A DNA stretch of 64,000 nucleotides from Escherichia coli (lineage in GTDB: Bacteria; Pseudomonadota; Gammaproteobacteria; Enterobacterales; Enterobacteriaceae): the NCBI RefSeq assembly GCF_051903065.1, contig NZ_CP178438.1; one strand, 5' to 3'. The translations under genes were made by a program, and so were the position numbers. Below, piece by piece: positions 9,748-55,478 of this stretch. How positions within the stretch are numbered: the first letter of the stretch is position 1; the number at the start of each line of letters is the position of its first letter. The notes under the pieces were generated by a model. The model made no database searches and was not told where the DNA came from. It worked only from the letters and a program-made list of their open reading frames with translations.

Positions 9748-9837
9748 GGTGACCGGTTTCACAAATATAAAAAATGAACAATTCACTCTCTTGCTTATTC
9801 AGTGACAACTATTCATGATTTTGTGAAACCGGTTTCT
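9748..9837. promoter_or_regulatory. Paired operator-like palindromes in the ascG<>ascF intergenic region
   Basis: GTGACCGGTTTCACA (9748-9763) and TGTGAAACCGGTTTC (9823-9837), both centred on AAACCGGTTT; typical LacI-family operator geometry. Confidence 0.4.
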
Positions 9838-9921
9838 TAATTCCGTTTCAGCATCGGCATTTTTCCGTCACGTCGACTGATAACAACCACATCTACCCTA
9901 CTGATAACAGGATAAACTCCG

Positions 9922-12812
<2,891 letters not shown>

Positions 12813-26814: not shown

Positions 26815-26858
26815 CAGATGTGGTTATACTCGATCAACATTCAATGAAAGGAGGCAGT

Positions 26859-27287
26859 ATGGCAGTTTCAGCAAGAAATCAATTAACCGGAACAGTTAGC
26901 GCAGTAGCAATGGGCGCGGTGAATGACGAAGTAGAACTGACGCTGGCAGGTGGTGCAAAGCTGGTGGCAATTGTGACTCACAGCAGCCAGCAGGCTCTGG
27001 GTCTGGCGAAAGGGAAAGAAGCGATTGCCCTGATTAAAGCCCCGTGGGTAACGCTGGCAACGGAAGACTGTGGACTGAAATTCTCTGCTCGCAACCAGTT
27101 TGCTGGCAGCGTGTCGACAATCACCGAAGGCGCAGTGAACGCCACTGTCCATATCAAAACGGATGCGGGTTTTGAAATTGTGGCAGTGGTAACAAATGAA
27201 AGTCAGGATGAAATGAAACTCACCACTGGCTCACGCGTTATTGCATTGATCAAAGCATCAGCCATCCTGATTGCCACCAAAGCGTAA
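26859..27287 (+). CDS. Tandem Mop/TOBE-domain molybdate-binding protein (two ~70-aa repeats)
   Basis: ORF 26820..27287; start chosen at ATG 26859 after AGGAGG RBS (MAVSARNQLTGTV...); internal duplication SARNQLTGTVSAV / SARNQFAGSVSTI typical of Mop repeats; 45 nt downstream of fhlA stop. Confidence 0.75.
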   Translation: MAVSARNQLTGTVSAVAMGAVNDEVELTLAGGAKLVAIVTHSSQQALGLAKGKEAIALIKAPWVTLATEDCGLKFSARNQFAGSVSTITEGAVNATVHIKTDAGFEIVAVVTNESQDEMKLTTGSRVIALIKASAILIATKA

Positions 27288-27298
27288 ACGCCTTATTT

Positions 27299-27321
27299 GC
27301 CGGAGAGTATGGCTCTCCGGC
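27299..27321 (+). terminator. Stem-loop terminator after the Mop gene
   Basis: GCCGGAGAG-tatgg-CTCTCCGGC, perfect 9-bp stem followed by a T-rich tract on the + strand. Confidence 0.6.
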
Positions 27322-27325
27322 AGAT

Positions 27326-27670
27326 TTATTTCTTTGGACGATATTTTTCTGGCAACTCCGGCACCGGACGCTTGTCATCGATGAGATGACGCACGGTTAA
27401 GATCGGATGACGCCACAGCATTCTCGGCCCGGCCCAACGCATAATCTGTTTCATCTCTTCACGCTTTGCAGGCTGGTAACAGTGCACCGGACACTGCTTA
27501 CAGGCTGGTTTCTCTTCGCCGAACACACATTTATCCAGCCGCTTTTGCGCGTAAGCAAACAACGCCTCGTAATGCTCCGGCTCCGCTGACGCCTGCGGGC
27601 ATTTCGCTTGATAAAGATCGATCATTTTTTTAATCGTCAGTTTTTCACGAGAGATACGCTTGCCGGACAT
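27326..27670 (-). CDS. ygbA: Cys-rich protein YgbA (function unknown; nitrosative-stress regulon member)
   Basis: 114 aa with conserved cysteines (CPQ...CKQCPVHC); divergent from mutS; upstream inverted repeat TTAAGATGCATTT...ATCTTAA at 27686-27718 resembles an NsrR-type operator. Confidence 0.8.
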   Translation of the reverse strand: MSGKRISREKLTIKKMIDLYQAKCPQASAEPEHYEALFAYAQKRLDKCVFGEEKPACKQCPVHCYQPAKREEMKQIMRWAGPRMLWRHPILTVRHLIDDKRPVPELPEKYRPKK

Positions 27671-27956
27671 GCTGCCTCCATCTCATTAAGATGCATTTAT
27701 ATTACAACTTAATCTTAAAGGGCACTATGACTCTAAAGAAGAAGGGTTCGCCAACCGATACAATTTTGCGTACTTGCTTCATAAGCATCACGCAAAAGCT
27801 GCAAAACAGCATCTTTCCCGGAACCAGCATCAAGAACTCGCCGTTCGCTTCTTCCCCTGAAATGATTAACTCCGGTATCATGTGCGCCTTATGTGATTAC
27901 AACGAAAATAAAAACCATCACACCCCATTTAATATCAGGGAACCGGACATAACCCC

Positions 27957-30518
27957 ATGAGTGCAATAGAAAATTTCGACGCCCATACGCCCATGATGCA
28001 GCAGTATCTCAAGCTGAAAGCCCAGCATCCCGAGATCCTGCTGTTTTACCGGATGGGTGATTTTTATGAACTGTTTTATGACGACGCAAAACGCGCGTCG
28101 CAACTGCTGGATATTTCACTGACCAAACGAGGTGCTTCAGCGGGAGAGCCGATCCCGATGGCGGGGATCCCCTACCATGCGGTGGAAAACTACCTCGCCA
28201 AACTGGTGAATCAGGGCGAGTCCGTTGCCATCTGCGAACAAATTGGCGATCCGGCGACCAGCAAAGGTCCGGTTGAGCGCAAAGTTGTGCGTATCGTTAC
28301 GCCAGGCACCATCAGCGATGAAGCCCTGTTGCAGGAGCGTCAGGACAACCTGCTGGCGGCTATCTGGCAGGACAGCAAAGGTTTCGGCTACGCGACGCTG
28401 GATATCAGTTCCGGGCGTTTTCGCCTGAGCGAACCGGCTGACCGGGAAACGATGGCGGCAGAACTGCAACGCACTAATCCTGCGGAACTGCTGTATGCAG
28501 AAGATTTTGCTGAAATGTCGTTAATTGAAGGCCGTCGCGGCCTGCGCCGTCGCCCGCTGTGGGAGTTTGAAATCGACACCGCGCGCCAGCAGTTGAATCT
28601 GCAATTTGGCACTCGCGATCTGGTCGGTTTTGGCGTCGAGAACGCGCCGCGCGGACTTTGTGCTGCCGGTTGTCTGTTGCAGTATGCGAAAGATACCCAA
28701 CGTACGACTCTGCCGCATATTCGTTCCATCACCATGGAACGTGAGCAGGACAGCATCATTATGGATGCCGCGACGCGTCGTAATCTGGAAATCACCCAGA
28801 ACCTGGCGGGTGGTGCGGAAAATACGCTGGCTTCTGTGCTCGACTGCACCGTCACGCCGATGGGCAGCCGTATGCTGAAACGCTGGCTGCATATGCCAGT
28901 GCGCGATACCCGCGTGTTGCTTGAGCGCCAGCAAACTATTGGCGCATTGCAGGATTTCACCGCCGGGCTACAGCCGGTACTGCGTCAGGTCGGCGACCTG
29001 GAACGTATTCTGGCACGTCTGGCTTTACGAACTGCTCGCCCACGCGATCTGGCCCGTATGCGCCACGCTTTCCAGCAACTGCCGGAGCTGCGTGCGCAGT
29101 TAGAAACTGTCGATAGTGCACCGGTACAGGCGCTACGTGAGAAGATGGGCGAGTTTGCCGAGCTGCGCGATCTGCTGGAGCGAGCAATCATCGACACACC
29201 GCCGGTGCTGGTACGCGACGGTGGTGTTATCGCATCGGGCTATAACGAAGAGCTGGATGAGTGGCGCGCGCTGGCTGACGGCGCGACCGATTATCTGGAG
29301 CGTCTGGAAGTCCGCGAGCGTGAACGTACCGGCCTGGACACGCTGAAAGTTGGCTTTAATGCGGTGCACGGCTACTACATTCAAATCAGCCGTGGGCAAA
29401 GCCATCTGGCACCCATCAACTACATGCGTCGCCAGACGCTGAAAAACGCCGAGCGCTACATCATTCCAGAGCTAAAAGAGTACGAAGATAAAGTTCTCAC
29501 CTCAAAAGGCAAAGCACTGGCACTGGAAAAACAGCTTTATGAAGAGTTGTTCGACCTGCTGTTGCCGCATCTGGAAGCGTTGCAACAGAGCGCGAGCGCG
29601 CTGGCGGAACTCGACGTGCTGGTGAACCTGGCGGAACGGGCCTATACCCTGAACTACACCTGCCCGACCTTTATTGATAAACCGGGCATTCGCATTACCG
29701 AAGGCCGCCATCCGGTGGTTGAACAGGTGCTGAACGAGCCATTTATCGCCAACCCGCTGAACCTGTCGCCACAGCGTCGCATGTTGATCATTACCGGTCC
29801 GAATATGGGCGGTAAAAGTACCTATATGCGCCAGACCGCACTGATTGCGCTGATGGCCTACATCGGCAGCTATGTACCGGCACAAAAAGTTGAGATTGGA
29901 CCTATCGATCGCATCTTTACCCGCGTAGGGGCAGCGGATGATCTGGCATCCGGGCGTTCAACCTTTATGGTGGAAATGACCGAAACCGCCAATATTTTAC
30001 ATAACGCCACCGAGTACAGTCTGGTACTGATGGATGAGATTGGGCGCGGAACTTCCACTTACGATGGTCTGTCGCTGGCGTGGGCGTGCGCGGAAAATCT
30101 GGCGAATAAGATTAAAGCATTGACGTTGTTTGCTACCCACTATTTCGAGCTGACCCAGTTACCGGAGAAAATGGAAGGCGTCGCCAACGTGCATCTCGAT
30201 GCACTGGAGCACGGCGACACCATTGCCTTTATGCATAGCGTGCAGAATGGCGCGGCGAGCAAAAGCTACGGCCTCGCGGTTGCAGCTCTGGCCGGCGTGC
30301 CAAAAGAGGTTATTAAGCGCGCACGGCAAAAACTGCGTGAGCTGGAAAGCATTTCGCCGAACGCCGCCGCTACGCAAGTGGATGGTACACAAATGTCTTT
30401 GCTGTCCGTACCGGAAGAAACCTCGCCTGCGGTCGAGGCACTGGAAAACCTCGATCCAGATTCACTCACCCCGCGTCAGGCGCTGGAATGGATTTATCGC
30501 CTGAAGAGTCTGGTGTAA
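27957..30518 (+). CDS. mutS: DNA mismatch repair protein MutS
   Basis: 853 aa; Walker [10 protein letters not shown]; full length and intact. Confidence 0.96.
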
Positions 30519-30623
30519 TAATAATTCCCGATAGTCTTTTGCTATCGGGAATATTAACGATAACTGACGAATCAAATAAAAATACCCTGTATAATAGGAA
30601 AGCTTATTTTACAGGGTAAAACC

Positions 30624-31280
30624 ATGCCATCTACACGCTATCAAAAAATCAATGCCCATCACTATCGCCATATATGGGTCGTTGGTGATATTCATGGTGA
30701 ATATCAGTTATTACAATCCCGCTTAAATCAACTCTCTTTTTTCCCCGAAACCGACTTACTTATTTCTGTCGGTGATAATATTGATCGTGGGCCGGAGAGT
30801 CTTAACGTCCTGCGCCTGCTAAACCAGCCCTGGTTTATCTCCGTTAAAGGCAACCACGAAGCAATGGCGCTGGATGCGTTCGCGACCGGCGATGGCAATA
30901 TGTGGCGTGCCAGCGGTGGTGACTGGTTTTTCGATTTAAATGATTCAGAGCAACAAGAGGCAATAGATCTGTTGCTGAAATTCCATCACCTTCCACATAT
31001 TATTGAAATCACTAACGACAACATAAAATATGTCATCGCACATGCAGATTATCCGGGGAGTGAATATCTCTTTGGTAAAGAAATAGCGGAGAGCGAATTA
31101 CTCTGGCCTGTTGATCGTGTGCAGAAATCACTTAATGGCGAGTTACAACAAATAAACGGCGCTGATTATTTTATATTTGGACATATGATGTTTGATAACA
31201 TTCAGACGTTCGCTAACCAGATTTATATTGATACCGGATCGCCGAAAAGCGGGCGGCTGTCATTTTATAAAATAAAGTAA
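30624..31280 (+). CDS. pphB: Serine/threonine protein phosphatase 2 (PP2B-like metallophosphatase)
   Basis: 218 aa; metallophosphatase motifs GDIHG, GDNIDRG, GNHE. Confidence 0.9.
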   Translation: MPSTRYQKINAHHYRHIWVVGDIHGEYQLLQSRLNQLSFFPETDLLISVGDNIDRGPESLNVLRLLNQPWFISVKGNHEAMALDAFATGDGNMWRASGGDWFFDLNDSEQQEAIDLLLKFHHLPHIIEITNDNIKYVIAHADYPGSEYLFGKEIAESELLWPVDRVQKSLNGELQQINGADYFIFGHMMFDNIQTFANQIYIDTGSPKSGRLSFYKIK

Positions 31281-31284
31281 TGAG

Positions 31285-31319
31285 GCCGGGTAAAGCAAAG
31301 CCACTACCCGGCACTTTTT
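31285..31319 (+). terminator. Rho-independent terminator after pphB
   Basis: GCCGGGTA-(12 nt loop)-TACCCGGC followed by ACTTTTTA. Confidence 0.6.
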
Positions 31320-31320
31320 A

Positions 31321-31557
31321 TTAGCGCTTACCTTCCGCCAGCAGCGGCGGGATGCTCGGCACCATTGGCGCGTCATCAATATCTTTCTGCGTCATGCGGA
31401 ACGCTTCGGGATAATGTTCGCGGCTGGTACGGCGCAGCGGTTCGGTATCGCGCCAGGTATAAAGGCAATGCTGGCACTGATATACCGTCCAGACATCTTT
31501 CACCGGCGATTTCGCCATCACTTCAATCTGTTCATCGGCACAACGTGGACAAATCAT
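31321..31557 (-). CDS. ecdD: Small zinc-ribbon subunit D of a UbiX/UbiD-type aromatic acid decarboxylase (BsdD/VdcD/KpdD family)
   Basis: 78 aa with CxxC...CxxC (MICPRCADEQ...CQHC); immediately downstream of the UbiD-like gene; symbol follows my recollection of E. coli O157 naming and needs confirmation. Confidence 0.7.
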   Translation of the reverse strand: MICPRCADEQIEVMAKSPVKDVWTVYQCQHCLYTWRDTEPLRRTSREHYPEAFRMTQKDIDDAPMVPSIPPLLAEGKR

Positions 31558-31567
31558 CTTGTTCTCC

Positions 31568-32995
31568 TTATTTACGTGCAGCCAGCATAGCGGTCAGTTT
31601 TTCAGCCCAGGCTTTGGTTTCCGGCAAATCCACCACCGGCTGGCTGTAGTGACCACGGTTGTCCGGGGCGACAGGCGTGGTGGCGTCGATAATCAGCTTG
31701 TCGGTGATCCCCGCCGGGCTTGAGCCAGGGTCGAGTTCCAGCACGGACATATTCGGCAACTGCACCAAATCCCCTGCCGGATTTACTTTCGAGGAGAGCG
31801 CCCACATCACCTGCGGCAGGTTGAACGGGTCAACGTCTTCATCGACCATAATCACCATCTTTACGTAGCCCAGACCGTGCGGCGTGGTCATCGCACGCAG
31901 GCCCACCGCGCGGGCAAAGCCGCCGTAGCGTTTTTTGGTGGAGATAATCGCCAGCAGGCCGTGGGTGTACATGGCGTTTACCGCCTGCACTTCCGGGAAC
32001 TCGGCTTTCAGTTGTTGATACAGCGGTACGCAGGTGGCTGGCCCCATCAGGTAGTCGATTTCGGTCCACGGCATGCCGAGGTACAGCGATTCGAAAATCG
32101 GCCTGGTGCGGTAAGAGACTTTATCGATGCGCACCACGGTCATGTTACGCCCGCCGGAGTAGTGTCCGGTAAACTCACCGAACGGCCCCTCGATTTCGCG
32201 TTTACGGCTTTCGATGACCCCTTCGAGGATCACTTCTGAACCCCACGGCACATCAAAACCGGTCAGCGGGGCGGTGGCGATCGGGTACGAGCTTTCACGC
32301 AGCGCGCCTGCCATTTCATACTCAGACTGATCGTATTTCAGCGGCGTGGCCCCCATCAGCGTGATGATCGGATCGTTACCGAGCGTGATGGCAATCGGCA
32401 GATCTTCACCGCGCTCTTCTGCTTTATGCAGATGCAGGGCGATATCGTGCATCGGCACCGGTTGCAGGCCGAGCTTACGCTTGCCCTTCACTTCCATGCG
32501 GTAGATGCCGACGTTCTGCTTGCCGAAGTTATCTGGGTCGAGCGGATCGCGGGAAACCACGCACGCTTTGTCGAGATAGAAACCGCCATCACCGTCGTTT
32601 AAACGAAACAGCGGCAGGATATCGAACAGATTAATCTCGTCACCATCGACGGTGTTCTGCGCCCAGGCTGGATTGGCGCGGCGCTCCGGGGCGATCGGGA
32701 AGTTATCCCAGCGGCGGATAAACTCATCAATCTGTTTTTTAACCGGGGTGTTTGGCGGCAGGCCCAAGGAAATCGCGTGGTTCTGCCAGGAACCGATGGT
32801 ATTCATCGCCACGCGGGCATCGGTAAAACCGCGAATATTATCAAACCACAGCGCCGGTGCACCATCGCCGATACGCCCGGTGGCGTTGGCAGCGGCAGCC
32901 AGATCCGGTTCCGCGTTCACCTCTTCGCTGATTTTCAGTAACTGGCCGTGGTCATCAAGCGCCTGTAAAAAGCTGCGTAAATCATCAAATGCCAT
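31568..32995 (-). CDS. ecdC: UbiD-family (prFMN-dependent) aromatic acid decarboxylase, subunit C
   Basis: 475 aa UbiD-like translation; operon order B-C-D on minus strand. Confidence 0.8.
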   Translation of the reverse strand: MAFDDLRSFLQALDDHGQLLKISEEVNAEPDLAAAANATGRIGDGAPALWFDNIRGFTDARVAMNTIGSWQNHAISLGLPPNTPVKKQIDEFIRRWDNFPIAPERRANPAWAQNTVDGDEINLFDILPLFRLNDGDGGFYLDKACVVSRDPLDPDNFGKQNVGIYRMEVKGKRKLGLQPVPMHDIALHLHKAEERGEDLPIAITLGNDPIITLMGATPLKYDQSEYEMAGALRESSYPIATAPLTGFDVPWGSEVILEGVIESRKREIEGPFGEFTGHYSGGRNMTVVRIDKVSYRTRPIFESLYLGMPWTEIDYLMGPATCVPLYQQLKAEFPEVQAVNAMYTHGLLAIISTKKRYGGFARAVGLRAMTTPHGLGYVKMVIMVDEDVDPFNLPQVMWALSSKVNPAGDLVQLPNMSVLELDPGSSPAGITDKLIIDATTPVAPDNRGHYSQPVVDLPETKAWAEKLTAMLAARK

Positions 32996-33588
32996 TATTC
33001 ATTCTCCTGAGAAAAATTCCGGGCCTGCGGCAATCCTTGCCAGCGCCTGGCGTGGGGATGTTCGAGGCCAAATTGATCCAGCACGCGGGCTACTACATGG
33101 TGGACAATGTCATCTACCGTTTCGGGATGGTTATAAAAGGCAGGCATCGGCGGCACCATCGCCACGCCCATGCGTGAAAGTGCGAGCATATTTTCGAGAT
33201 GGATGGTGCTAAGCGGCATTTCACGCGGCACCAGCACCAGTTTGCGGCCTTCTTTGAGCACGACGTCCGCCGCGCGCCCTACCAGGCCATCAGCGTAACC
33301 AGCGCGGATACCGGCGAGCGTTTTCATACTGCACGGAATAACGATCATGCCGTCGGTACGAAAGGAACCTGAGGAGATGGTCGCCGCCTGATCCGCCGGG
33401 TTATGGCTGAAGTCAGCGAGGGCAGCAACATCGCGGGCGCTGTAAGGCGTTTCCAGTTCAATGGTGGTTTTCGCCCACTTCGACATCACCAGATGAGTCT
33501 CGACATTCGGCATCTCCCGCAGCGCTTGCAGTAATGCCACACCAAGAGGCGCACCGGTAGCCCCTGTCATCCCGACGATCAGTTTCAT
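32995..33588 (-). CDS. ecdB: UbiX/Pad1-family flavin prenyltransferase, subunit B
   Basis: 197 aa; N-terminal MKLIVGMTGATGA flavoprotein motif typical of UbiX. Confidence 0.8.
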   Translation of the reverse strand: MKLIVGMTGATGAPLGVALLQALREMPNVETHLVMSKWAKTTIELETPYSARDVAALADFSHNPADQAATISSGSFRTDGMIVIPCSMKTLAGIRAGYADGLVGRAADVVLKEGRKLVLVPREMPLSTIHLENMLALSRMGVAMVPPMPAFYNHPETVDDIVHHVVARVLDQFGLEHPHARRWQGLPQARNFSQENE

Positions 33589-33605
33589 TGCTTATTCTCT
33601 TAATT

Positions 33606-33619
33606 GTTCGTATACGAAC
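33606..33619. promoter_or_regulatory. Perfect 14-bp palindrome, candidate MarR-type operator
   Basis: GTTCGTATACGAAC, 18 nt upstream of the ecdB start codon in the divergent intergenic region. Confidence 0.35.
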
Positions 33620-33734
33620 GTTATTATTAAAATACGCCTCTGTTCTCATCGCGGCAAGCACTGAAAAGTAACAACATCCCCTTCGTCACTGAAAAACCGC
33701 TATGATAGCGGCAGAGAATTAGCCCGGAGTTTAC

Positions 33735-34142
33735 ATGGCGTTACGAAATAAAGCGTTCCATCAGTTACGACAGCTTTTTCAGCAGCACACATCTCGCTGG
33801 CAGCATGAGCTACCTGGCCTGACCAAACCGCAGTACGCGGTGATGCGCGCCATTGCTGATAAGCCTGGTATCGAACAGGTTGCGCTGATGGAAGCAGCAG
33901 TCAGCACCAAAGCAACGCTGGCAGAAATGCTGGCAAGAATGGAGAATCGTGGCTTAGTCAGACGTGATCATGATGCCGCTGACAAGCGGCGTCGCTTTGT
34001 CTGGCTGACTGCCGAAGGAGAAAAGATACTTGCTGCGGCGATACCGATTGGTGACAGCGTGGATGAGGAATTTTTGGGGCGTTTGAGTGCAGAAGAGCAG
34101 GAGCTGTTTGTGCAGCTGGTGCGCAAGATGATGAACACATAG
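33735..34142 (+). CDS. MarR/SlyA-family winged-helix transcriptional regulator
   Basis: 135 aa; MarR-type wHTH (LTKPQYAVMRAI...GLVRR); divergent from the decarboxylase cassette. Confidence 0.8.
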   Translation: MALRNKAFHQLRQLFQQHTSRWQHELPGLTKPQYAVMRAIADKPGIEQVALMEAAVSTKATLAEMLARMENRGLVRRDHDAADKRRRFVWLTAEGEKILAAAIPIGDSVDEEFLGRLSAEEQELFVQLVRKMMNT

Positions 34143-34204
34143 GATGCAAATTGCCGGGTAGGACGCTGACGTGTCTTATCCAGGCGACAAAAACACAAGC
34201 TTCC

Positions 34205-34250
34205 CAAACAAAAGAAAAAGGCCAGCCTCGCTTGAGACTGGCCTTTCTGA
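34205..34250 (-). terminator. rpoS terminator (also serves the convergent MarR gene)
   Basis: GGCCAGCCTCGCTTGAGACTGGCC hairpin flanked by an A-run on + and a T-run on the minus strand. Confidence 0.65.
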
Positions 34251-34261
34251 CAGATGCTTAC

Positions 34262-35254
34262 TTACTCGCGGAACAGCGCTTCGATATTCAGCCCCTGCGT
34301 TTGCAGGATTTCGCGCAAACGGCGCAGGCCTTCAACCTGAATCTGGCGAACACGTTCACGGGTGAGGCCAATTTCACGACCTACATCTTCCAGTGTTGCC
34401 GCTTCGTACCCCAGCAAACCGAATCGACGTGCCAGTACTTCACGCTGTTTGGCGTTCAGCTCGAACAGCCATTTGACGATGCTCTGCTTCATATCGTCAT
34501 CTTGCGTGGTATCTTCCGGACCGTTCTCTTTTTCATCGGCCAGGATGTCCAGCAACGCTTTTTCGGAATCACCACCCAGCGGGGTGTCTACCGAGGTAAT
34601 GCGCTCGTTAAGACGAAGCATACGGCTGACGTCATCAACTGGCTTATCCAGTTGCTCTGCGATCTCTTCCGCACTTGGTTCATGGTCCAGCTTATGGGAC
34701 AACTCACGTGCGGTTCGCAGGTAAACGTTCAGCTCCTTTACGATGTGAATCGGCAAACGAATAGTACGGGTTTGGTTCATAATCGCCCGTTCAATCGTCT
34801 GGCGAATCCACCAGGTTGCGTATGTTGAGAAGCGGAAACCACGTTCCGGGTCAAACTTCTCTACCGCGCGGATCAGCCCCAGGTTGCCCTCTTCGATAAG
34901 GTCCAGCAACGCCAGACCACGATTGCCATAACGGCGGGCAATTTTTACCACCAGACGCAAGTTACTCTCGATCATCCGGCGGCGAGAGGCGACATCTCCA
35001 CGCAGTGCGCGACGCGCAAAATAAACTTCTTCTTCGGCCGTTAACAGTGGTGAATAACCAATCTCACCAAGGTAAAGCTGAGTCGCGTCCAACACACGCT
35101 GTGTGGCTCCCTGCGATAACAGTTCCTCTTCGGCCAAATCGTTATCACTGGGTTCCTCTTCTACTAAGGCCTTTTCGTCAAAAACCTCAACTCCGTTCTC
35201 ATCAAATTCCGCATCTTCATTTAAATCATGAACTTTCAGCGTATTCTGACTCAT
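34262..35254 (-). CDS. rpoS: Stationary-phase sigma factor RpoS (sigma-38)
   Basis: ORF 34262..35290; start at [21 protein letters not shown] (330 aa); intact with no premature stop; codon 33 is GAG. Confidence 0.96.
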
Positions 35255-35316
35255 AAGGTGGCTCCTACCCGTGATCCCTTGACGGAACATTCAAGCAAAA
35301 GCCTGGTTCCGCCGAT

Positions 35317-36456
35317 TTATCGCTGCGGCAAATAACGCAGCGGGTTTACGGATTTCCCCTTGTAACGAATTTCAAAATGCAAGCGTGTTGAACTGGTTCC
35401 GGTGCTACCCATGGTTGCTATTTTTTGCCCCGCCTTCACTTCTTGTTGTTCCCGGACCAGCATTGTGTCGTTATGGGCGTAGGCACTCAGGTAATCATCA
35501 TTATGTTTGATGATAATCAGATTACCGTAGCCGCGCAGCGCGTTACCGGCATAAACAACGCGGCCATCTGCGGTCGCGATAATTGCCTGTCCTTTGCTGC
35601 CTGCGATATCAATCCCCTTGTTGCCCCCCTCAGAAGCGCCAAAGGTTTCGATCACTTTGCCCTCAGTCGGCCAGCGCCAGGTGGAGATAGGCGTACTGGT
35701 TGATGTACTGCTGACAGTCGGCTCGGTTGTGCTTGCTGTTGGTACCGTTACAGGCGCTGTGACCGTGGTCGCAGTTGGCTTGTTGTTCGGCAACATTTTG
35801 TTAGCACTCTGTTCACCCGAAGACTCAGAATACGTAATTGTCGGTTGCGACGCAACAGCAACGGTGGAATTTTGTGCAGGCTTGATCACAACTCCTTGCT
35901 CTGCTGCGTCGGCCTGGGTAATGGCATTTCCGCCAGTGATTGGCGTACCGGAAGCATTCCCCACCTGTAAGGTCTGACCAACGTTCAGCGCGTATGGTGC
36001 CTGAATATTGTTGCGCTGAGCAAGGTCACGGAAATCGTTGCCAGTAATCCAGGCGATATAGAAAAGTGTGTCGCCTTTTTTCACGGTGTATGTACTGCCG
36101 CTATAACTGCCTTTCGGAATGTTCCCATACTGACGGTTATAGACGATGCGTCCGTTTTCCATCTGTACCGGCTGCTGAGCTACTGGCTGCACTGGCTGGA
36201 TTTGCGGTTGTTGAGTAGCCTGAATTTGTGGCTGCTGTACCGGCTGAATTTGCGGTTGCTGCGCTGTAGACGTCGTCCCCATTTTCGGCGGCGGCGTAAT
36301 CAACATACCAGAATTGGTATTTGCAGGCGCATTGCCATTGACGGAACTGACCGGTGCCGGTGGATTTGAAGTGTCAGAACAGCCTGCCAGCCATAGCGAA
36401 ACCAGTGACAAAGCCGCAATGCGGCGAACGGTGAATTTTGGGCTTCCCGCGCTCAT
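35317..36456 (-). CDS. nlpD: Lipoprotein NlpD (LysM + M23 peptidase-like; amidase activator)
   Basis: 379 aa; lipobox LAGCS; proline/glutamine-rich repeat ([13 protein letters not shown]...). Confidence 0.93.
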
Positions 36457-36595
36457 TTATCCCCCAGGAAAAATTGGTTAATAACCAGTGACATAATTAC
36501 CGTGCAAGGCACCATACTGAACACTGGAAAAGATGTTCACGATACGCTGACCTGCGGCAAAATAACCAGGAAAAATCCAGGTATTTCCTCACGTT

Positions 36596-37957
<1,362 letters not shown>

Positions 37958-45341: not shown

Positions 45342-45858
45342 GGGTGTTCTACCGCAGGGGCGGGGAATTCTCAGTGATATCCATCATCGCATCCAGTGCG
45401 CCCGGTTTATCCCCGCTGGCGCGGGGAACACGTGTGGCACTCTGCGTCTGGTATTAAATCATTCGGTTTATCCCCGCTGGCGCGGGGAACACCCGCCACG
45501 CCGTGCGCATCAACAGATATACGCAGGTTTATCCCCGCTGGCGCGGGGAACACAAACCGAAACACACGATCAATCCGAATATGAGCGGTTTATCCCCGCT
45601 GGCGCGGGGAACACCGAAAAGGCACCGTGCCGGTGACGTTCAATTCCGGTTTATCCCCGCTGGCGCGGGGAACACCGTTTTCACTCACTGGCAATCTCCG
45701 AGCAGAGCGGTTTATCCCCGCTGGCGCGGGGAACACGTGCGAATACCGTGTAAAAAATTAGTGTTATTCGGTTTATCCCCGCTGGCGCGGGGAACACTCA
45801 CGGTAGCGCCACTGCGCGTCGGTGACGGGCGGTTTATCCCCGCTGGCGCGGGGAACAC
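45342..45858 (-). CRISPR. Type I-E CRISPR array: 8 canonical 29-bp repeats plus one degenerate terminal repeat, 8 spacers
   Basis: Repeat on + strand CGGTTTATCCCCGCTGGCGCGGGGAACAC at 45403, 45464, 45525 (first base A), 45586, 45647, 45708, 45769, 45830; 61-bp period; degenerate iap-proximal repeat 45342-45370 matches 19/29; spacers 32 bp; leader at the high-coordinate end, so crRNA is read from the minus strand. Confidence 0.97.
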
Positions 45859-45954
45859 ACTAAGCATACATATCTGTTTTTAAACAAATTTATTCCACAT
45901 CAACAATCTACCAACTAAATTCAAACATTTCCTTATTTTTAAAGAACACATAAC
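45859..45954 (-). promoter_or_regulatory. CRISPR leader (AT-rich, carries the array promoter)
   Basis: 96-bp AT-rich segment between cas2 stop and the leader-proximal repeat. Confidence 0.8.
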
Positions 45955-47164
<1,210 letters not shown>

Positions 47165-47168
<4 letters not shown>

Positions 47169-47815
47169 ACCTCTGCTCCGGGTTTGATCAGCATCAGACC
47201 ACAGCCGAACGCGCGGCTTTTGCCATACCCCTGACTGAGACGTTGCAGAAATAACCCGGGATCGGTGACCGTAAGCATCCCCGTATAATCCACGCTACTG
47301 AACTGGATCAGTTGCCGGGAGTTTTCCCGCCGCAGTTGCTGTTGTCGGTAGGCATCAACCGAGGTATCCAGCAGTGTAAAACCGCTTCTCTCCCCCTGCG
47401 CTGCCAGCCAGTCCAGCGCCGCCTGTTGTTGATGCAACCAGACATCACGCCCTTCCGCCTGTCCCCTCACCTGCCGTTTCGCCTCCATCAGCAGATCGTG
47501 GCGCTTGCCCGCTTTACAAATTGTGGGATTCGCCCGCAGGTTGAAACAAAGGGATTGTCCGGTACGCAGCTCCGGAGCAAATGACCGGCATTCGATAGTG
47601 AAAGTTTCACTTTCCGCCGGGCGTTCCTGCGAGAGGACAAAAAAGCGAAACGCACCCTGAAGTTCCTCCCGACGATAAAGAAATTGCCTTTCTTTGCCGC
47701 CAGGGAAGAGATCCCACAGCCACTGATGCATCACATATTCACCGCGATCCACCAGATGCAGCAACTGCGCAGGCAAAAGCTGAGCGGTATGTAAGGTTAT
47801 TCTTGAGAGGTACAT
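47165..47815 (-). CDS. casE: Cas6e (CasE) crRNA endoribonuclease
   Basis: ORF 47165..47953; start placed at MYLSRITL (ATG 47815, AGGAGG RBS), 216 aa; C-terminal glycine-rich segment GYGKSRAFGCGLM. Confidence 0.88.
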
Positions 47816-48543
47816 GGTTCCTCCTTGCTGAGCCACGGCCCCTGATTGACGGTGCGTTCCCCAAACAGCCACTGCTGGCGATTTAAAGGAACATCCCGGC
47901 GGCGTAATATTTTGCTCACGACCAGGCCGTCGTGCTCCCCTTCCCACCAGCATTCATCCTGAAGTTTCGGGAGTGAGACTTTCAGGTCGTGGAAATGATC
48001 CTGATACTGTTGGTATGCGTTACGTAAAACATCAGACGCGTTGCCTTCGAGCAGTAACGGCGCAAGTGGTAATGCCAGCGGATGACTTTTTCGCCCCAGA
48101 TAAAGAGGAAAAACTGGATGGCGTAAACCGCCCTGCAACTGTTCGAGGCTGTAAGGCGCATCGGCTGTTGTTGCCACCGCCACCATCCACCAGGCGTCGG
48201 TGTAGTAGTCGCGCCGGGAGATAATCGCGCTCAGAAGATCAGAGTCGCTCAACTCTTCGCGACGGCTGAAATAACGCGCTTTGCGCACCTCTTTTGGCAT
48301 CTGGATCGTGTGATAATCCCGTGCCCAGCGCGGGTTACGGCTGGCGCAAACCACCAGTGAATAGTGGCGATTAAACGCGTTTAAGCGTTCGGTATCATCA
48401 CGCCGAATCCCTACCCCGGCAGCCAGCAGACCCAGCAATGCTGAGCGCGAAGGCAGTTCATGGGTATGACGCACTTCGCCGGGGGCATCGACGCCCCAGG
48501 ATGCCATTGGCCCATGAAGCTGAAAAATCAGATATTGGCTCAT
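47797..48543 (-). CDS. casD: Cas5e (CasD) Cascade subunit
   Basis: 248 aa; N-terminus MSQYLIFQLHGPMASWG. Confidence 0.88.
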   Translation of the reverse strand: MSQYLIFQLHGPMASWGVDAPGEVRHTHELPSRSALLGLLAAGVGIRRDDTERLNAFNRHYSLVVCASRNPRWARDYHTIQMPKEVRKARYFSRREELSDSDLLSAIISRRDYYTDAWWMVAVATTADAPYSLEQLQGGLRHPVFPLYLGRKSHPLALPLAPLLLEGNASDVLRNAYQQYQDHFHDLKVSLPKLQDECWWEGEHDGLVVSKILRRRDVPLNRQQWLFGERTVNQGPWLSKEEPCTSQE

Positions 48544-48553
48544 AAGCCGCCCC

Positions 48554-49609
48554 TTACGCGCAGATAAAGTCCAGTACGTCCTTCATGCTTCCCTGTTTGT
48601 TCATCACGTCAAAACTTGCGCATTCAGTCTTCTGTTCGTAGACCGTATTCATGTTTTCGCGAAGCGTTGTAATACGCTGCACCGCCACATCTAACTGACG
48701 GGTACCATTAATGGGTTCATAGAAAGCCGCCGCCAGAGAACGCGGTTGATCAGTGCCTTTTTCCGCCAGCGCCCAGGAGGCGTAGGCACGGCTGGCAAAG
48801 CTATTTTGTTTACCGGTTGGGGAAACTTTAAGCGCGGCTTCCGTAAAAGCGCGTATGGTCTGATTAGCTAACGCTTCGTCACCGCCGAGGTTTTCTACCA
48901 GCAGATCTTTATCAATGCAGATATAGGTGTAGAAAAGTGCTGAACCGAATCCGGTTTCTCCGAGATGCCCGGCACCGGCATCTTCAGAGGCCTGGCGCAA
49001 ATCATCAACGGCGGTGAAAAAATCATCTTCGACAATCGTTTCACTGACACCAAACGCATGCGCGACCTGGCAGGCGGCTTCAACATTAAACTCAGGTTTA
49101 TTCGCCAGCATACGACCAAACATAGCGATATCTACCGCTATACGGTCTTTACGTAACAACGCGAGATCTTCCTCTTTTGGCGCGCGCTTTTCTTCTGCCA
49201 GTTGATGGGCCAGCGCTTTTACGGCGTCAAATTCTGCCGGGCTGATATGAACTAATTGTTCAGTTTCGGCGTTAGTGAGCGGATCTTTTGGTTTTTTGTC
49301 GTTTTTAGCTTTCCCAAGATAATCTGCAATTTTTGCCGCCCATTCGATGGCTTTTTTCTCTTCGATTCCTTTCTCAATCAGGATAGTTGCCGCCTCACGC
49401 GCAATTCGCCCACTGCGAATACCAATATGGCCCGCCAGTGCCTGTTCAAAAAGTGCAGAAGTGCGCCACGCACGTTTCAGACTTTGTGAGGAAACGCGCA
49501 GACGCGTTGCACCACCCAGTACCACAGTTTTTGGCGCACCAGTATCATCACGGTTAAGGTTGGCAGCAGGGTAAGCGGTTAACAAATGAAGCTGAATAAA
49601 TGTTGTCAT
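48554..49609 (-). CDS. casC: Cas7e (CasC) Cascade backbone subunit
   Basis: 351 aa; N-terminus MTTFIQLHLLTAYPAANLNRDD. Confidence 0.9.
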   Translation of the reverse strand: MTTFIQLHLLTAYPAANLNRDDTGAPKTVVLGGATRLRVSSQSLKRAWRTSALFEQALAGHIGIRSGRIAREAATILIEKGIEEKKAIEWAAKIADYLGKAKNDKKPKDPLTNAETEQLVHISPAEFDAVKALAHQLAEEKRAPKEEDLALLRKDRIAVDIAMFGRMLANKPEFNVEAACQVAHAFGVSETIVEDDFFTAVDDLRQASEDAGAGHLGETGFGSALFYTYICIDKDLLVENLGGDEALANQTIRAFTEAALKVSPTGKQNSFASRAYASWALAEKGTDQPRSLAAAFYEPINGTRQLDVAVQRITTLRENMNTVYEQKTECASFDVMNKQGSMKDVLDFICA

Positions 49610-49620
49610 GAGATAGTCCT

Positions 49621-50160
49621 TTATTGATTTTGTTCGTTATCGGCGTCGCCAGCCTGGTAATATTCCAGCGCCCAGCGGATACGGATAAATTCGGTTGGCC
49701 GCTGCTGGCGGCGGTGATGATTGAGCAGGTCGTCGCTCTCCTGACACCAGCGGAAAATATCGTCTGCCAAAGAGATAAGATTGACGGAACCGTTTAATAA
49801 TTTGACTGCGCGTCGTAACTGGCGCAGTAATTCATCCGGCGTTTTTACTGCCGACAGGCAAGTAAAACGCCCCTCTGACATTACCGCCGCCAGCTGTGCG
49901 GCAAAAGGCTGCCGTTCATCAATGGCTTTAACATTGGCGGCAACGGCGGCGACCAGTGCCAGTGCGGTAAAACGCCACTCTTGTGCTTCAATTTTCCACA
50001 AAGTGTGGGTCTGCATCAGCAGAGAACGAAACCCTTCTGACAAGCAAACATCATTAACCGTTGTGCTACGCCGCAGACTGGCACGATTGCCGCGTTTAGC
50101 CTGCAACTCTTCGTGCCATTTACGCAGCGTGGCTTTGTGCCCGTCTTTTACAATACTCAT
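49621..50160 (-). CDS. casB: Cse2 (CasB) Cascade small subunit
   Basis: 179 aa; position between cse1 and cas7; 4-nt overlap with cse1 stop. Confidence 0.85.
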   Translation of the reverse strand: MSIVKDGHKATLRKWHEELQAKRGNRASLRRSTTVNDVCLSEGFRSLLMQTHTLWKIEAQEWRFTALALVAAVAANVKAIDERQPFAAQLAAVMSEGRFTCLSAVKTPDELLRQLRRAVKLLNGSVNLISLADDIFRWCQESDDLLNHHRRQQRPTEFIRIRWALEYYQAGDADNEQNQ

Positions 50161-51719
50161 TCAGCAGCCTCCTGCTTTTTCTCCCTGGCGGCTTTAGCAC
50201 TTTGCTTCTCCGCCGATGTTGTAAAATATTTTTTGCGCGCGGTCATGACGCGTTTTAAATCAACGGGCTCATAAGGATTGGTGAATACACGCTCGTCAAA
50301 ATCCTGACGCGAGAATAACCAAATCTCCTTATTCCATTTGCTGAGTAATTCATCCGCATCCTGACCTTCTTCAATTTGGCGCACTAACCTCAGGAAGCGA
50401 TGCTGAGTTTTGTTCCAGAAGTCGATATCCACAAAACTGAAATCACCCCGTGCACCTTTTGGATCGGAGAACCATGCTTCTTTCAATGCACTCCGTAACA
50501 GACTTAGAATGCGTGAAGCCGTTTGCGCAGCCAGCCGCAGTTTCGGTATCTGGCCTTCTTTTTTATTGAGCAGCAGCGGGAAACGGTGTTCGTACCAACA
50601 GCGGGCTTTCATGTTGTCGAAATCATAGCCAAATCCCCATAGGCCTACTTTTGCCTGCTTGAGACTGCTGGCATTAAAGAGTTTCACCACCAGAGCGGGA
50701 AGTTCCGTATTGTTTTCTGACTTACCCGTTTCGATAAGGCCTAACCAGTCGCGCCAAATTAAACCGCCTGGTTGTGGTTTAACTGAGTAAAACTCGCCAC
50801 CCTCTTTAAGTGGTACACGGTAAGGCGTTAATGGATGCTGCCACATGGCATAATTCGCACCGTAATTTTTGGTCGTCATCAGGCTCAGAAGCGCGTCGTC
50901 CTGCTCACCGCAAATATCGCAGTTGCCGACTGTCGTGGTATTAAAATCAATACGAATACGCCGCGGCATTCCCCAGTACGCCTGGAGTTTATTGACCTGA
51001 TCATCGGTTACCACCGCACCGGCCAGTTCGCTGGTACGCGTCGGGCCAAGCCAGGGGAAAACCAGATCGTCAAATTTTTTGGGTAGCGGTAAGTCGGCTT
51101 CATCCTGCGGCATCACGTTGAGCCACAGTTTGCGCCACAAGGGGGCTTGTTGATTGCCCTGATACTCCTGCAATTCAATCAGAGTCGTCATCGGCCCACC
51201 GCCGCGTAAACCGGTTCGGTAGCCTTTGCCGCCTGACGGTGCATTTAACTGTAGGGAGAACAGAGCTAACGCGGAACAATGAGGGCATACGTGTTCAGTC
51301 ACGCCACGCTTAATAAAGTGGTCTTTATTAAACTTCGTTGTTTGAGCGCCGGGAATCTCAGGCAGTAATGAAGCAACCTGAACTTTATCTCCCGTGAGCG
51401 CCTCGAAATCCTGCATAAATGAAGGGGAATCTGGCCCAAACTGGAAAGCATGTTCTAAAGACAGCAATGCTTCCCGTAGCTTTTCGGCTTCCAGTCCGTC
51501 TTGCCAGATATCATCCCAACGACCATGATTTTTGGGCGCGAAACTGGTTTGTAGTAGCCCCAGTAAAAACTGCCATGCTGCTCCCTGGAGATCTGCTCGT
51601 GGCGCAGCGATATCGACAACATTTTCATCAGCCAGATCGACTGGCGCCAGTTTGCCTGTCGTTCCGTCTTTAAAACGAACGGGCAACCACGGGGTTGTCA
51701 GAAGTGAAAACGAGTTCAT
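50157..51719 (-). CDS. casA: Cse1 (CasA) Cascade large subunit
   Basis: ORF 50157..51725; start preferred at MNSFSLLTTPWLPV (ATG 51719, 6-nt spacing from GAGAGG); 520 aa. Confidence 0.88.
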   Translation of the reverse strand: MNSFSLLTTPWLPVRFKDGTTGKLAPVDLADENVVDIAAPRADLQGAAWQFLLGLLQTSFAPKNHGRWDDIWQDGLEAEKLREALLSLEHAFQFGPDSPSFMQDFEALTGDKVQVASLLPEIPGAQTTKFNKDHFIKRGVTEHVCPHCSALALFSLQLNAPSGGKGYRTGLRGGGPMTTLIELQEYQGNQQAPLWRKLWLNVMPQDEADLPLPKKFDDLVFPWLGPTRTSELAGAVVTDDQVNKLQAYWGMPRRIRIDFNTTTVGNCDICGEQDDALLSLMTTKNYGANYAMWQHPLTPYRVPLKEGGEFYSVKPQPGGLIWRDWLGLIETGKSENNTELPALVVKLFNASSLKQAKVGLWGFGYDFDNMKARCWYEHRFPLLLNKKEGQIPKLRLAAQTASRILSLLRSALKEAWFSDPKGARGDFSFVDIDFWNKTQHRFLRLVRQIEEGQDADELLSKWNKEIWLFSRQDFDERVFTNPYEPVDLKRVMTARKKYFTTSAEKQSAKAAREKKQEAAE

Positions 51720-52115
51720 ACGCATCCTCTCGTAGAAAAGACCATCCCTGGTCGGTTGTCCATCACCATATTTTCAGATTTAGTTGGAGACTTAATCTGA
51801 GTCGGATAAAAGAAAAGACGTTGAATGTGATACGAAAATCGAACTTAGTTTGTCGTTTTGAAAGCAGACTTAGCACAAGTTGAAGCAAAAAAATCGACAA
51901 CATCGTAGTCCTCTTCACCGCAGCTTTTCACCGGTCACGAAAATACGCCTTGTAACGGTGTGACTCAACTCCGGATCCGGACATTATTTAAAATCTTTGT
52001 TTCTCATTAACTCATAGCAATTACCCATCTATCATAATCACAATAGCATTGATAAAATAAATCCATTCCCTGATTCTAGGGATTAACCAAGTTAGTGAGA
52101 TACAAAAATTGGTTC

Positions 52116-52144
52116 CTGTTCCCCGCGTCAGCGGGGATAAGCCC
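52116..52144 (+). repeat. Solitary CRISPR-repeat-like element in the cas3-cse1 intergenic region
   Basis: + strand CTGTTCCCCGCGTCAGCGGGGATAAGCCC matches the crRNA-sense repeat GTGTTCCCCGCGCCAGCGGGGATAAACCG at 25/29 with the stem intact; orientation is opposite to the array; followed by a perfect 10-bp hairpin at 52142-52165 that abuts the cas3 stop. Confidence 0.8.
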
Positions 52145-52169
52145 TGGCGTCATCCGACGCCAGGGCATC

Positions 52170-54869
52170 TCAATCAACCTTGCCAATCAATCCTTCCGTA
52201 GCCGAATACCCGCAGCTTTCGTCATCGGTGACTAAAATCACGTTTGCCATCTCCGGATCTTGCCGTTGTTCAATGCACCACTGCCTGAACGCTTCCCCTT
52301 CCAGTAAAGAAAATTCATCCCGATGTTTTTTCCACCAGCTTCGACGCACTCTGGCAACGCTCATTTCCCATGCGTGAGCACCGCTGGCATAAGGCTTCAC
52401 CACACCGTCAATACAGGTAGCCAGCCACAGGGAAACAGACTCTTCAGCCAGACGTGTCGACAGCTTTTCCGGGAGGTAATCGTTGATATTGGCGGCATAG
52501 CCGGGCCTGAAGTTCAGCATAAACTTTTTAGCCATTGCGCGATCGCAGTAATATTTGCCCACTTGCTCCTGCTCGCTGCGGGCAAATCCTTCCGGCATTA
52601 CCACGTCCTCACCGTAGACGGATTCAATAAGAAGCCGGGCTGCGTGTGGCATCTGAATAGCGCCTTGCTCACGCAATACTCGCTGCGTCAGCCAGATTCG
52701 CCCATGATCGGGGTAGACATATGCGCTGTTACGCATCGCACTACCAAACCATTCGTCACCCGGAGAGTCGTCCCAGACGGGGGCCAGAATCAGCAATTCA
52801 GGAGGGGAACGCTCGTCTTTTCCATCACGTTTTAACTGACCATTAATATCACGAATATGCCGTTGTAATCGCCCCGCTCGCTGGATCAGCAAATCAATGG
52901 GGGCCAGGTCGGAGATCATTTCGTCCAGGTCAATATCCACACTTTGCTCAATTACTTGTGTACAAACAATGACTTGAGATGATCTTTTTAAACTACAATT
53001 TTTACCAAAGCGTGCCAGCGTTTCCGTTTCAATTCGCTGGCGATCGCTAAAAGCAAAGCGGCTATGAAAAAGTGAAAGGCTGGAAGCAGGAATGACGCCG
53101 CGGGCAAGTAACTGACGATAAACCTTAATAGCGTCATCGACAGAATTCCGGATCCAGGCGATGCATTTCCCCTGACTTACCGCTGATTCGATACGCGCAA
53201 TACATTCTTGTTCGCTATGAAGCCAACCCACGCTCACGCTACGCTCAACGTCTTTGCGCGTCGCTACCCGGTGCGAATGCACATCGGATTTCGTGACATG
53301 CGTCAGCCAGGGGTAATCATCCTTTTCTAGGAACGGAGCTTCTTGCTGGCCCTCTGTGCCACGCGCAAAGGCGGCGACAAGTTTGTCGCGCTGCTGTTGA
53401 GATAACGTAGCAGAAAGCAAAATGACGCTGTTTCCGCCACGCACCTGTCGCTCAATCAACCCTTCAAGAATGTACGACATGTAAGCGTCACAGGCGTGGA
53501 TCTCATCAGCCAGCAGGATTTTGTTACTCAACCCCAGAAGCCGCAGATTATTATGTTTAAACGGCATCACTGCCATCATCGCCTGATCCAGCGTGCCGAC
53601 GCCAATTTCAGCCAGTAAAGCCTTCTTGTTACTGTCGGCAAACCAGGCTGCACATCCTTGACTGAACGCTTGTTCATCCGGTTCTTCTGACCCGACTAAA
53701 TCACCGGACCAGAGTGATTCATTAAAGCGTTCCATTAATGTACGGGCGCTGTGTGCCAGCACCAGGCTGGGGCGGGATTCTGGCGAAAAGAAAGCAAGCC
53801 AGGTTTTGACCAGCCGATCGTACATGGCATTGGCCGTTGCCATTGTTGGCAGGCCAAAAAACAAACCCTGAGCTTTATTCTCAGCCATCAACCTGTGCGC
53901 CAGGATAAGCGCCGCTTCTGTTTTACCTGCGCCAGTCACATCTTCCAGAATAAATAACTGTGGCCCTGGCTGGCTGATATCCAGATCCAGTACCTTTTGC
54001 TGTAATGGTGTCGGGTGCTCAATAAAAGGAAACAGCGTATTAATTCCGGTGAAAGGTGCGGTTTCTGCTTTTGGAGGAAAGACGGTTAAGGCGTTTTGAG
54101 CCTGAACTAAAGTTTTCTGCCAGTAATCTTTAATATTCATTGTCTGTGCGACGCGTGGAAAAAATCGCGTTGACGAACCCGTCCAGTCTGCGAGTACGAC
54201 TGTTGCAGAGATATACCAGGAAAGTTGTTTTAAAAGTTCAACGCCCTCGTCATCATCCCAGAATGTGGGAATCTCTATGAGCGGAAACAGTGACTTGATT
54301 TCAAGGAGAAAATCTCGTGCGGCAGCTTTGTCTTCAGGCAGGAAATTATCCAGTTCATCAATACGGTCAGGGGGCCGACCATGATGCCCGGTAGTCATGG
54401 GCATCCACATCGCTATTACACGTTTAAGTTTGCGAGTAGAGAGTGAAGAGGCAGGAAGCAATTCTTCGCATTCACTTAAATAATGATGCCACAACCAGTA
54501 GCCCAGCGTTGAATGAGAGATCTTTTCGTAATTCTTTCTTGCGCCTTCCGGAACCTTGAGTTGTGGGTGCAGGTAAAGTTGCTGAAATGAGCGGGCAAAT
54601 TTTCCAATATCGTGCCAGCACAACAACCAGGCGAAAAATTGAGCCGCCTGTTCCTTGTCAGAAATCCCTAATTGACGAAAATAATCAGCCAGCCCGAAGC
54701 AATTTCTTTTAACCATTAAATAGCCCATCGCGGCCACATCCAGCGAATGCCAGCAAAGAAGGTGATAGTCGTCACCCCCTTCTTTCTCGTCGCGTCGGGT
54801 TTTTCCCCAGAAATCAAAGAAAGTCACAATATTTTTATCCTTCAGTAAACTTAAAGGATATTTACGCAT
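52170..54869 (-). CDS. cas3: Cas3 HD nuclease / SF2 helicase (type I-E)
   Basis: 899 aa; N-terminal HD motifs (LLCWHSLDV, WHDIGKF), helicase Walker A GAGKTEAAL and DEIHA box; highly AT-rich upstream region. Confidence 0.92.
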   Translation of the reverse strand: MRKYPLSLLKDKNIVTFFDFWGKTRRDEKEGGDDYHLLCWHSLDVAAMGYLMVKRNCFGLADYFRQLGISDKEQAAQFFAWLLCWHDIGKFARSFQQLYLHPQLKVPEGARKNYEKISHSTLGYWLWHHYLSECEELLPASSLSTRKLKRVIAMWMPMTTGHHGRPPDRIDELDNFLPEDKAAARDFLLEIKSLFPLIEIPTFWDDDEGVELLKQLSWYISATVVLADWTGSSTRFFPRVAQTMNIKDYWQKTLVQAQNALTVFPPKAETAPFTGINTLFPFIEHPTPLQQKVLDLDISQPGPQLFILEDVTGAGKTEAALILAHRLMAENKAQGLFFGLPTMATANAMYDRLVKTWLAFFSPESRPSLVLAHSARTLMERFNESLWSGDLVGSEEPDEQAFSQGCAAWFADSNKKALLAEIGVGTLDQAMMAVMPFKHNNLRLLGLSNKILLADEIHACDAYMSYILEGLIERQVRGGNSVILLSATLSQQQRDKLVAAFARGTEGQQEAPFLEKDDYPWLTHVTKSDVHSHRVATRKDVERSVSVGWLHSEQECIARIESAVSQGKCIAWIRNSVDDAIKVYRQLLARGVIPASSLSLFHSRFAFSDRQRIETETLARFGKNCSLKRSSQVIVCTQVIEQSVDIDLDEMISDLAPIDLLIQRAGRLQRHIRDINGQLKRDGKDERSPPELLILAPVWDDSPGDEWFGSAMRNSAYVYPDHGRIWLTQRVLREQGAIQMPHAARLLIESVYGEDVVMPEGFARSEQEQVGKYYCDRAMAKKFMLNFRPGYAANINDYLPEKLSTRLAEESVSLWLATCIDGVVKPYASGAHAWEMSVARVRRSWWKKHRDEFSLLEGEAFRQWCIEQRQDPEMANVILVTDDESCGYSATEGLIGKVD

Positions 54870-55061: not shown

Positions 55062-55214
55062 CTACTTCTTCGATTCGTAAGCGAGAACAGCCTTAAACTC
55101 CATACCACGTTCTCTGATACTCAACTCACACAACGAGTCACCTACCATCAGCGTGAATCCCAGTACTGTACAACACAGTACGATGATTGCCACAAGGGCA
55201 TATTTTGTCAGCAT
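55062..55214 (-). CDS. Hok/Gef-family type I toxin (50 aa), HokE-like
   Basis: Not in ORF track (too short). ATG 55214 after GGGAGG; translation [50 protein letters not shown] with the Hok signature SLCE..R.G.E..A.LAYES.K; stem-loop GCGGGGGTAAAACCCCGC just downstream (55036-55055). Confidence 0.7.
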
Positions 55215-55478
55215 GTCTTGCCTCCCTGCAAAGAAGAGACTAACATTCGAATTGCTTAGGTTCGAACGCTGGCCTCAGGTTGATAGAAATATCGCCTGGG
55301 GCTTTTGTCCATCTGGAACCTCGCGAATGCTTAACGCCAGACAGCCTCAAGCACCCAACACCATTCTATACCTGTTAATTCTTCCAGCGGCGTTCACGTT
55401 TAAAATCAGGAATGCTGCTCGCAAAATAAAAACGCCCCCATCATTTCTGACAGAGGCGTTTAATTTATCCGGCAATAT

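Follow-up and report, generated by a model that had tools for sequence, protein, structure and literature searches.

Glutamate at codon 33 of an intact rpoS gene adjoining an O157-type mutS-rpoS cassette in a non-K-12 Escherichia coli chromosome

Introduction

The rpoS gene found in a 64,000-nucleotide stretch of an Escherichia coli chromosome (contig NZ_CP178438.1 of assembly GCF_051903065.1; hereafter the window) raises the question of how much a single codon may reveal about the state of a gene and the origin of the strain that carries it. A sequence-only reading of this window had proposed that rpoS was full length, that its codon 33 was GAG, and that this codon, together with the cassette lying between mutS and rpoS, pointed to a non-K-12 background.

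The variability of this codon is well established in the literature. According to Dong et al. (2009), position 33 is an amber codon in some K-12 strains and Glu, Tyr or Gln in others, TAG, CAG, GAG and TAT having all been described at this position in K-12 stocks; the same authors found GAG to be common in natural non-K-12 isolates and to be present in all of their VTEC strains (PMC2700278). Ferenci et al. (2011) observed the corresponding substitution, C97G (Q33E), in the majority of the ECOR strains that they sequenced, and also tabulated G819A for several ECOR strains (PMC3074542). For the occurrence of Glu33 in some K-12 stocks, both papers cite Atlung 2002 (PMC2700278, PMC3074542). The polymorphism, its history in K-12 and the cassette types are thus all already published, and nothing in them is novel; the genome census given below provides current figures for an old observation, and its significance is otherwise that of bookkeeping.

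Integrity of rpoS and Identity of Its Product

The rpoS coding sequence was located on the minus strand at 34262..35254 and comprised 993 nt, corresponding to 330 codons followed by TAA. The gene was intact, since the open reading frame, its translation and a three-gene alignment with the K-12 references all revealed a frame free of internal stop codons and frameshifts. The ATG start codon was found at 35254..35252, with an AGGAG Shine-Dalgarno (SD) sequence 7 nt upstream. A mechanical list of open reading frames also included a 342-aa ORF beginning at an upstream ATG at 35290, which was rejected as the real product; the start at 35254 was kept because it is supported by the SD sequence and used both in the PDB chains and in the annotations from K-12 and PGAP. 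Direct reading of the letters bore out both the full length of 330 aa and the exact place of codon 33, which is GAG (Glu) at 35158..35156 on the minus strand, corresponding to CTC at 35156..35158 on the plus strand.

The predicted sigma-S product was identical to RefSeq WP_000081550.1. It matched the whole of NF004207, the NCBIfam equivalog model for RpoS (residues 1-329 of 329; 604.6 bits, cut-off 394), and also the narrower RpoS model TIGR02394, which matched residues 48-328 (480.7 bits, cut-off 378.7). Moreover, it was collinear with E. coli RpoS chains of solved structure, including 6KJ6 and 5IPL, over residues 1-330, and residue 33 was the sole difference in the 6KJ6 alignment, being E in the window and Q in the chain. 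The equivalog match, the full frame and the synteny with nlpD together identify the gene as RpoS (sigma-S), a group 2 member of the sigma-70 family. At the DNA level, the gene was identical to the annotated rpoS of strain 23CRST027 and of the O121 strain GTVSS-020, and copies with 100% identity were found in O121:H19 strains and in many other independent isolates.

Damaged copies of the gene were observed in related genomes. The rpoS of O157:H7 PA11 was 977 nt long and annotated as frameshifted (positions 8983-9959 of locus L006), and an IS1 was found inside the rpoS of NCTC9064 and of CAVP879/880. These lesions illustrate the instability of rpoS to which the sequence-only reading had alluded.

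Codon 33 in the K-12 References and among Complete Genomes

The rpoS regions of MG1655 (NC_000913.3) and W3110 (NC_007779.1) were aligned with that of the window. In this alignment of three genes, codon 33 was CAG (Gln) in MG1655, TAG (amber, the rpoSam allele) in W3110 and GAG in the window, and in the W3110 annotation rpoS is entered as a pseudogene carrying an internal stop. Relative to MG1655, the window gene presented C97G at codon 33 and the synonymous G819A at codon 273 (34436..34438, minus strand), which was GTA (Val) in the window and GTG in K-12, with no further differences. The earlier statement that K-12 carries CAG or TAG at this codon was therefore correct for these two sequenced references, and the GAG of the window was absent from both.

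The frequency of each allele was determined with a 61-mer that had the first base of codon 33 at its centre, taken in three versions, across 5426 complete E. coli genomes; at such a length, the band of at least 99% identity amounts to an exact match. The GAG version was matched exactly in 4821 of the 5426 genomes, a share of 89% that is to be read as a lower bound, since about 299 genomes presented other changes (SNPs, deletions or other codons) within the 61-mer. Exact matches to the CAG version were found in 173/5426 genomes and to the TAG version in 121/5426, both together accounting for about 5% of the complete genomes. GAG is, consequently, the species norm and would be expected in an E. 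coli taken at random, in agreement with the earlier statement that many other isolates carry it.

Among the records listed, the two rarer alleles belonged overwhelmingly to K-12 laboratory derivatives. Among the 60 of 173 CAG matches listed, most were K-12 derivatives, such as MG1655 and its variants, BW25113, MC4100/BW2952, DH10B and RV308. The 60 of 121 TAG matches listed included W3110, EMG2, WG1, J53, NCM3722, HMS174, S17-1, ER strains and BLR(DE3); in this group, EMG2 and WG1, which are the earliest K-12 stocks, carry the amber codon. One clear non-K-12 chromosome was noticed among the 120 CAG/TAG matches listed, namely that of BLR(DE3) (NZ_CP020368.1), which belongs to the B lineage and harbors the K-12 rpoS amber allele. 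Approximately 85 kb of its chromosome, in the vicinity of recA and rpoS, were acquired from K-12 by transduction (PMC5454202).

A further query consisted of the MG1655 rpoS gene and its ygbN flank with codon 33 set to GAG. Exact matches to it were found in many isolates of natural or clinical origin, so that GAG also occurs in natural isolates presenting the K-12-type ygbN-rpoS arrangement; all of the 60 matches listed were isolates of this kind, and none was labelled as K-12. The existence of K-12 stocks with GAG therefore rests on the literature (PMC2700278, PMC3074542).

On these grounds, GAG would be the ancestral state of codon 33. In the K-12 laboratory lineage it would have given way to TAG, from which MG1655 and some other descendants would then have pseudo-reverted to CAG (Gln). 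This order of mutations, from GAG to TAG to CAG, is likely, considering the distribution of the alleles and the cited literature. GAG would be ancestral even for the K-12-type allele, because the MG1655 sequence with GAG33 and the ygbN flank was exact in so many natural isolates. In practical terms, a "Q33E substitution" returned by pipelines based on MG1655 reflects an oddity of the reference and not of the strain under analysis.

The mutS-rpoS Cassette

The region between mutS and rpoS differed from that of K-12 in gene content. A cassette of 2936 bp, with genes on both strands, was found at 31280..34215, replacing the 6097-bp ygbI-ygbN block of MG1655; none of the ygb genes of that block was found in the window. 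BLAST placed the breakpoints relative to MG1655 at 31279/31280, at the end of pphB, and at 34215/34216, 46 nt past the rpoS stop codon. The conserved left flank (27957..31280, plus strand) comprised mutS and pphB, which were 97.7% and 96.8% identical to their MG1655 counterparts, respectively. The gene order was pphB, vdcDCB, marR and rpoS, with pphB ending at 31280 and vdcD beginning at 31321.

Three genes of the cassette lay on the minus strand, vdcD at 31321..31557, vdcC at 31568..32995 and the vdcB/UbiX-like gene at 32995..33588, and their products exceeded the cut-offs of the NCBIfam models VdcD, VdcC and VdcB, respectively, which describe subunits of a non-oxidative hydroxyarylic acid decarboxylase. 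The fourth gene, at 33735..34142 on the plus strand, encoded a MarR/SlyA-like regulator of 135 aa, which PGAP assigns to the MarR family in 23CRST027; against the models of that family, SlyA among them, the product scored weakly and below the equivalog cut-offs.

Ewers et al. (2014) defined as pattern I the arrangement in which o454/ygbN is absent and mutS-pphB is joined directly to yclC/kpdC (vdcC), and assigned K-12 to pattern II, in which the ygbI-ygbN block stands between pphB and rpoS (PMC4209514). The cassette of the window is of pattern I, the O157:H7/EHEC-1 type, as ygbN/o454 is absent and the slyA-like regulator adjoins rpoS. Its 2936 bp also agree in size with the insert of 2.9 kb described by LeClerc et al. 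(1999), as summarised in the same paper (PMC4209514). The arrangement itself was common, the cassette being present in 2417 of the 5426 genomes, most copies at about 96% identity; at 99% identity or more, it was found in 4/5426 genomes only. The segment from mutS to nlpD (27000..37000) was covered by at least 80% in one contiguous match in 809 genomes.

Other Features of the Window

Further features were observed outside the mutS-rpoS region. Between norW and hypF, a tandem array (5155-5542) contained four copies of a 97-nt unit with 90% matches, and BLAST suggests that MG1655 has fewer copies at this site. This unit presumably resembles the intergenic repeats of the REP/BIME type. A CRISPR array of 8 repeats and 7 spacers with a 61-nt period was found at 45402-45860, adjoining a complete type I-E cas operon at 45955-54869 (cas2, cas1, cas6e, cas5e, cas7e, casB, casA and cas3). 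The operon was about 70% identical to that of K-12 over cas2-cas1, with no alignment over the remainder, and was for this reason regarded as the alternative E. coli I-E variant. Between cas3 and cysH, a hok/sok type I toxin-antitoxin module was identified, in which sok was placed at 55199-55356 on the minus strand (Rfam, 111.7 bits) with the Hok/Gef coding sequence adjacent. At this site, only the sokX small RNA is annotated in MG1655, whereas the module of the window is intact.

Upstream of mutS, an insertion of 481 bp was found between fhlA and ygbA (26816-27296), harboring a gene on the plus strand (26859-27287) whose 142-aa product contained two Mop/TOBE molybdenum-pterin-binding domains. 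It was present in 1892 of the 5426 complete genomes and absent from MG1655 and O157:H7 PA11. Ewers et al. tied a long fhlA-mutS amplicon, with 465 bp extra, to B2 strains of pattern III (PMC4209514). The 481-bp insertion, close in size to this excess, would correspond to it, standing here beside a pattern I cassette.

Origin of the Chromosome

The sequence-only reading had made its argument depend on whether K-12 also carries GAG at codon 33. This holds for some stocks described in the literature, and does not hold for the sequenced MG1655 and W3110. With Glu33 on record for some K-12 stocks, a K-12 origin cannot be excluded from codon 33 alone, and GAG is not diagnostic. A K-12 derivative whose amber codon had reverted to GAG could thus be imagined behind the window, as stocks with GAG33 have been reported (PMC2700278, PMC3074542) and TAG differs from GAG by one base change. 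Nevertheless, in such a derivative the window would be about 100% identical to MG1655, and it was about 97-98% identical as a whole; vdcDCB-marR stood in place of the K-12 ygbI-ygbN block; the extra Mop/TOBE gene, the different cas operon and the intact hok/sok module set it further apart; and a natural human faecal isolate matched it with 1 mismatch in 49.8 kb. A reversion in K-12 is therefore exceedingly improbable, the cassette and the divergent flanks being enough to refute it.

In more precise terms, the aligned blocks of the window were 97.2-98.2% identical to MG1655, with overall values of 97-99% for the flanks, and none of the features tested for the K-12 lineage, namely a CAG/TAG codon, the ygbI-ygbN block and near-100% identity to MG1655, was found. 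The nearest genome was that of 23CRST027, a human faecal isolate from Ecuador, with 1 mismatch in 49,801 aligned bases. This single mismatch was located at position 48563, at the 3′ end of cas7e. The non-K-12 background proposed earlier is supported, mainly by the cassette, by flanks that diverge by 1-3% and by the remaining indels, and the proposal of the cassette as a non-K-12 marker stood as well, vdcDCB-marR being found where K-12 has ygbI-ygbN. The window belongs, in this way, to a natural non-K-12 isolate with an O157-type mutS-rpoS arrangement.

Mosaic Structure of the Locus

The segments that meet at this locus presented different nearest relatives. The rpoS gene and its terminator were 100% identical to the O121 allele, whereas the adjoining cassette was 95.7% identical to that of the O121 strains and 98.4% identical to that of O157:H7 PA11; mutS was 96-98% identical to all three references (MG1655, O121 and O157:H7 PA11). 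The terminator-like hairpin of rpoS, identified by a terminator scan at 34205..34248 on the minus strand, comprised a 15-pair stem followed by a T-rich tail, and both the BLAST breakpoints and the junction sequences revealed that homology with K-12 breaks at the base of this stem (34216/34215). Such a mosaic agrees with the propensity for recombination already known for the mutS-rpoS region; nothing else about the locus is even mildly unusual. Since an O121/B1-type rpoS, a rare cassette nearest to that of O157:H7 and the Mop/TOBE insertion were found in one chromosome, it could tentatively be suggested that the lineage arose by recent recombination among three sources at the mutS-rpoS hot spot, in which the terminator may act as a recurrent breakpoint, although we regard this as rather doubtful.

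The Leader Region and the Expected Activity of Sigma-S

The reading that we prefer, with a probability of about 0.93, is that the window harbors an ordinary functional rpoS allele of natural isolates (Glu33) in a non-K-12 E. coli chromosome. Under this reading, the gene would give rise to a full-length, active sigma-S under normal regulation. The full-length product is predicted, its activity is a probable consequence, and the word "intact" applies to the sequence of the gene.

Upstream of rpoS, nlpD was found immediately adjacent on the minus strand (35317..36456), and the nlpD-rpoS region was 99.4% identical to that of MG1655, with no gaps. The leader region (35255..35821, minus strand) took in the spacer between rpoS and nlpD as well as the 3′ portion of nlpD; counted from the main promoter, which lies within nlpD, the rpoS leader would be about 567 nt long. 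No consensus site was returned by a sigma-70 promoter scan of 34100..36600, a result that says nothing about the known rpoS promoter within nlpD. When the entire window was scanned against Rfam at the gathering cut-offs, no RNA family was found in or near rpoS, the sok of the toxin-antitoxin module (55199..55356) being the sole match.

An intact rpoS is no guarantee of a normal level of sigma-S, because RpoS levels vary among strains with identical rpoS; in the ECOR collection, the levels differed widely among strains sharing the same RpoS sequence (PMC3074542). The strain could accordingly be RpoS-low or RpoS-null through regulatory differences, such as SNPs in the leader or trans-acting factors. 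Three leader SNPs relative to MG1655 were in fact found, at -162, -183 and -294. They all lay in the distal leader and were synonymous in nlpD, leaving the NlpD protein identical to that of MG1655, while no difference from MG1655 was found in the spacer or in the 160 nt directly preceding the rpoS ATG. In addition, a decaying locus is not suggested by a gene that is 100% identical in many independent isolates, including O121:H19. An RpoS-low or RpoS-null state is, therefore, considered unlikely; the prediction is an RpoS-proficient strain, a point that bears on its stress, acid and stationary-phase phenotypes.

It could also be argued that Glu33 is functionally distinct and has been selected, altering the stability of sigma-S or its choice of promoters relative to Gln33. 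Residue 33 falls within the acidic N-terminal part of sigma-S, ahead of the conserved sigma-70 regions, and it is N-terminal to the span of TIGR02394. The Glu/Gln difference at this position has been reported to affect activity little, Ferenci et al. having described Q33E as of "similar functional activity" (PMC3074542). Furthermore, amber strains free of suppressors can produce a truncated sigma-S that starts from an internal initiation region and lacks residues 1-53, and this form keeps partial activity (PMC2763269); the glnX (supE) suppressor is also present in many K-12 amber strains (PMC3045373). Glu is, moreover, the majority state, and Gln the derived oddity. A selected role for Glu33 is thus held to be very improbable, and the allele is better regarded as the ordinary one of natural isolates.

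Comparison with Known Systems

When compared with K-12, the rpoS genes of MG1655 and W3110 had the same length as that of the window, and each was identical to it at 991/993 nt. The synteny of nlpD and rpoS and the terminator hairpin were also common to the window and both K-12 strains. The difference was found in the downstream neighbour of rpoS, which in K-12 is ygbN and in the window is the marR-like gene with vdcBCD.

Compared with the published pattern I, in which kpdD/C/B (the equivalents of vdcD/C/B) directly follow pphB and precede the slyA-like regulator and rpoS, the window presented the same arrangement. The cassette architecture of O157:H7 PA11 was likewise the same as that of the window, whereas the O121 strains, whose rpoS is identical, contain both blocks (pattern IV). 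Finally, in relation to the 33E allele of natural isolates, known from ECOR and VTEC/EHEC strains and represented by WP_000081550.1, the protein encoded in the window was identical, and no difference of substance was found between them.
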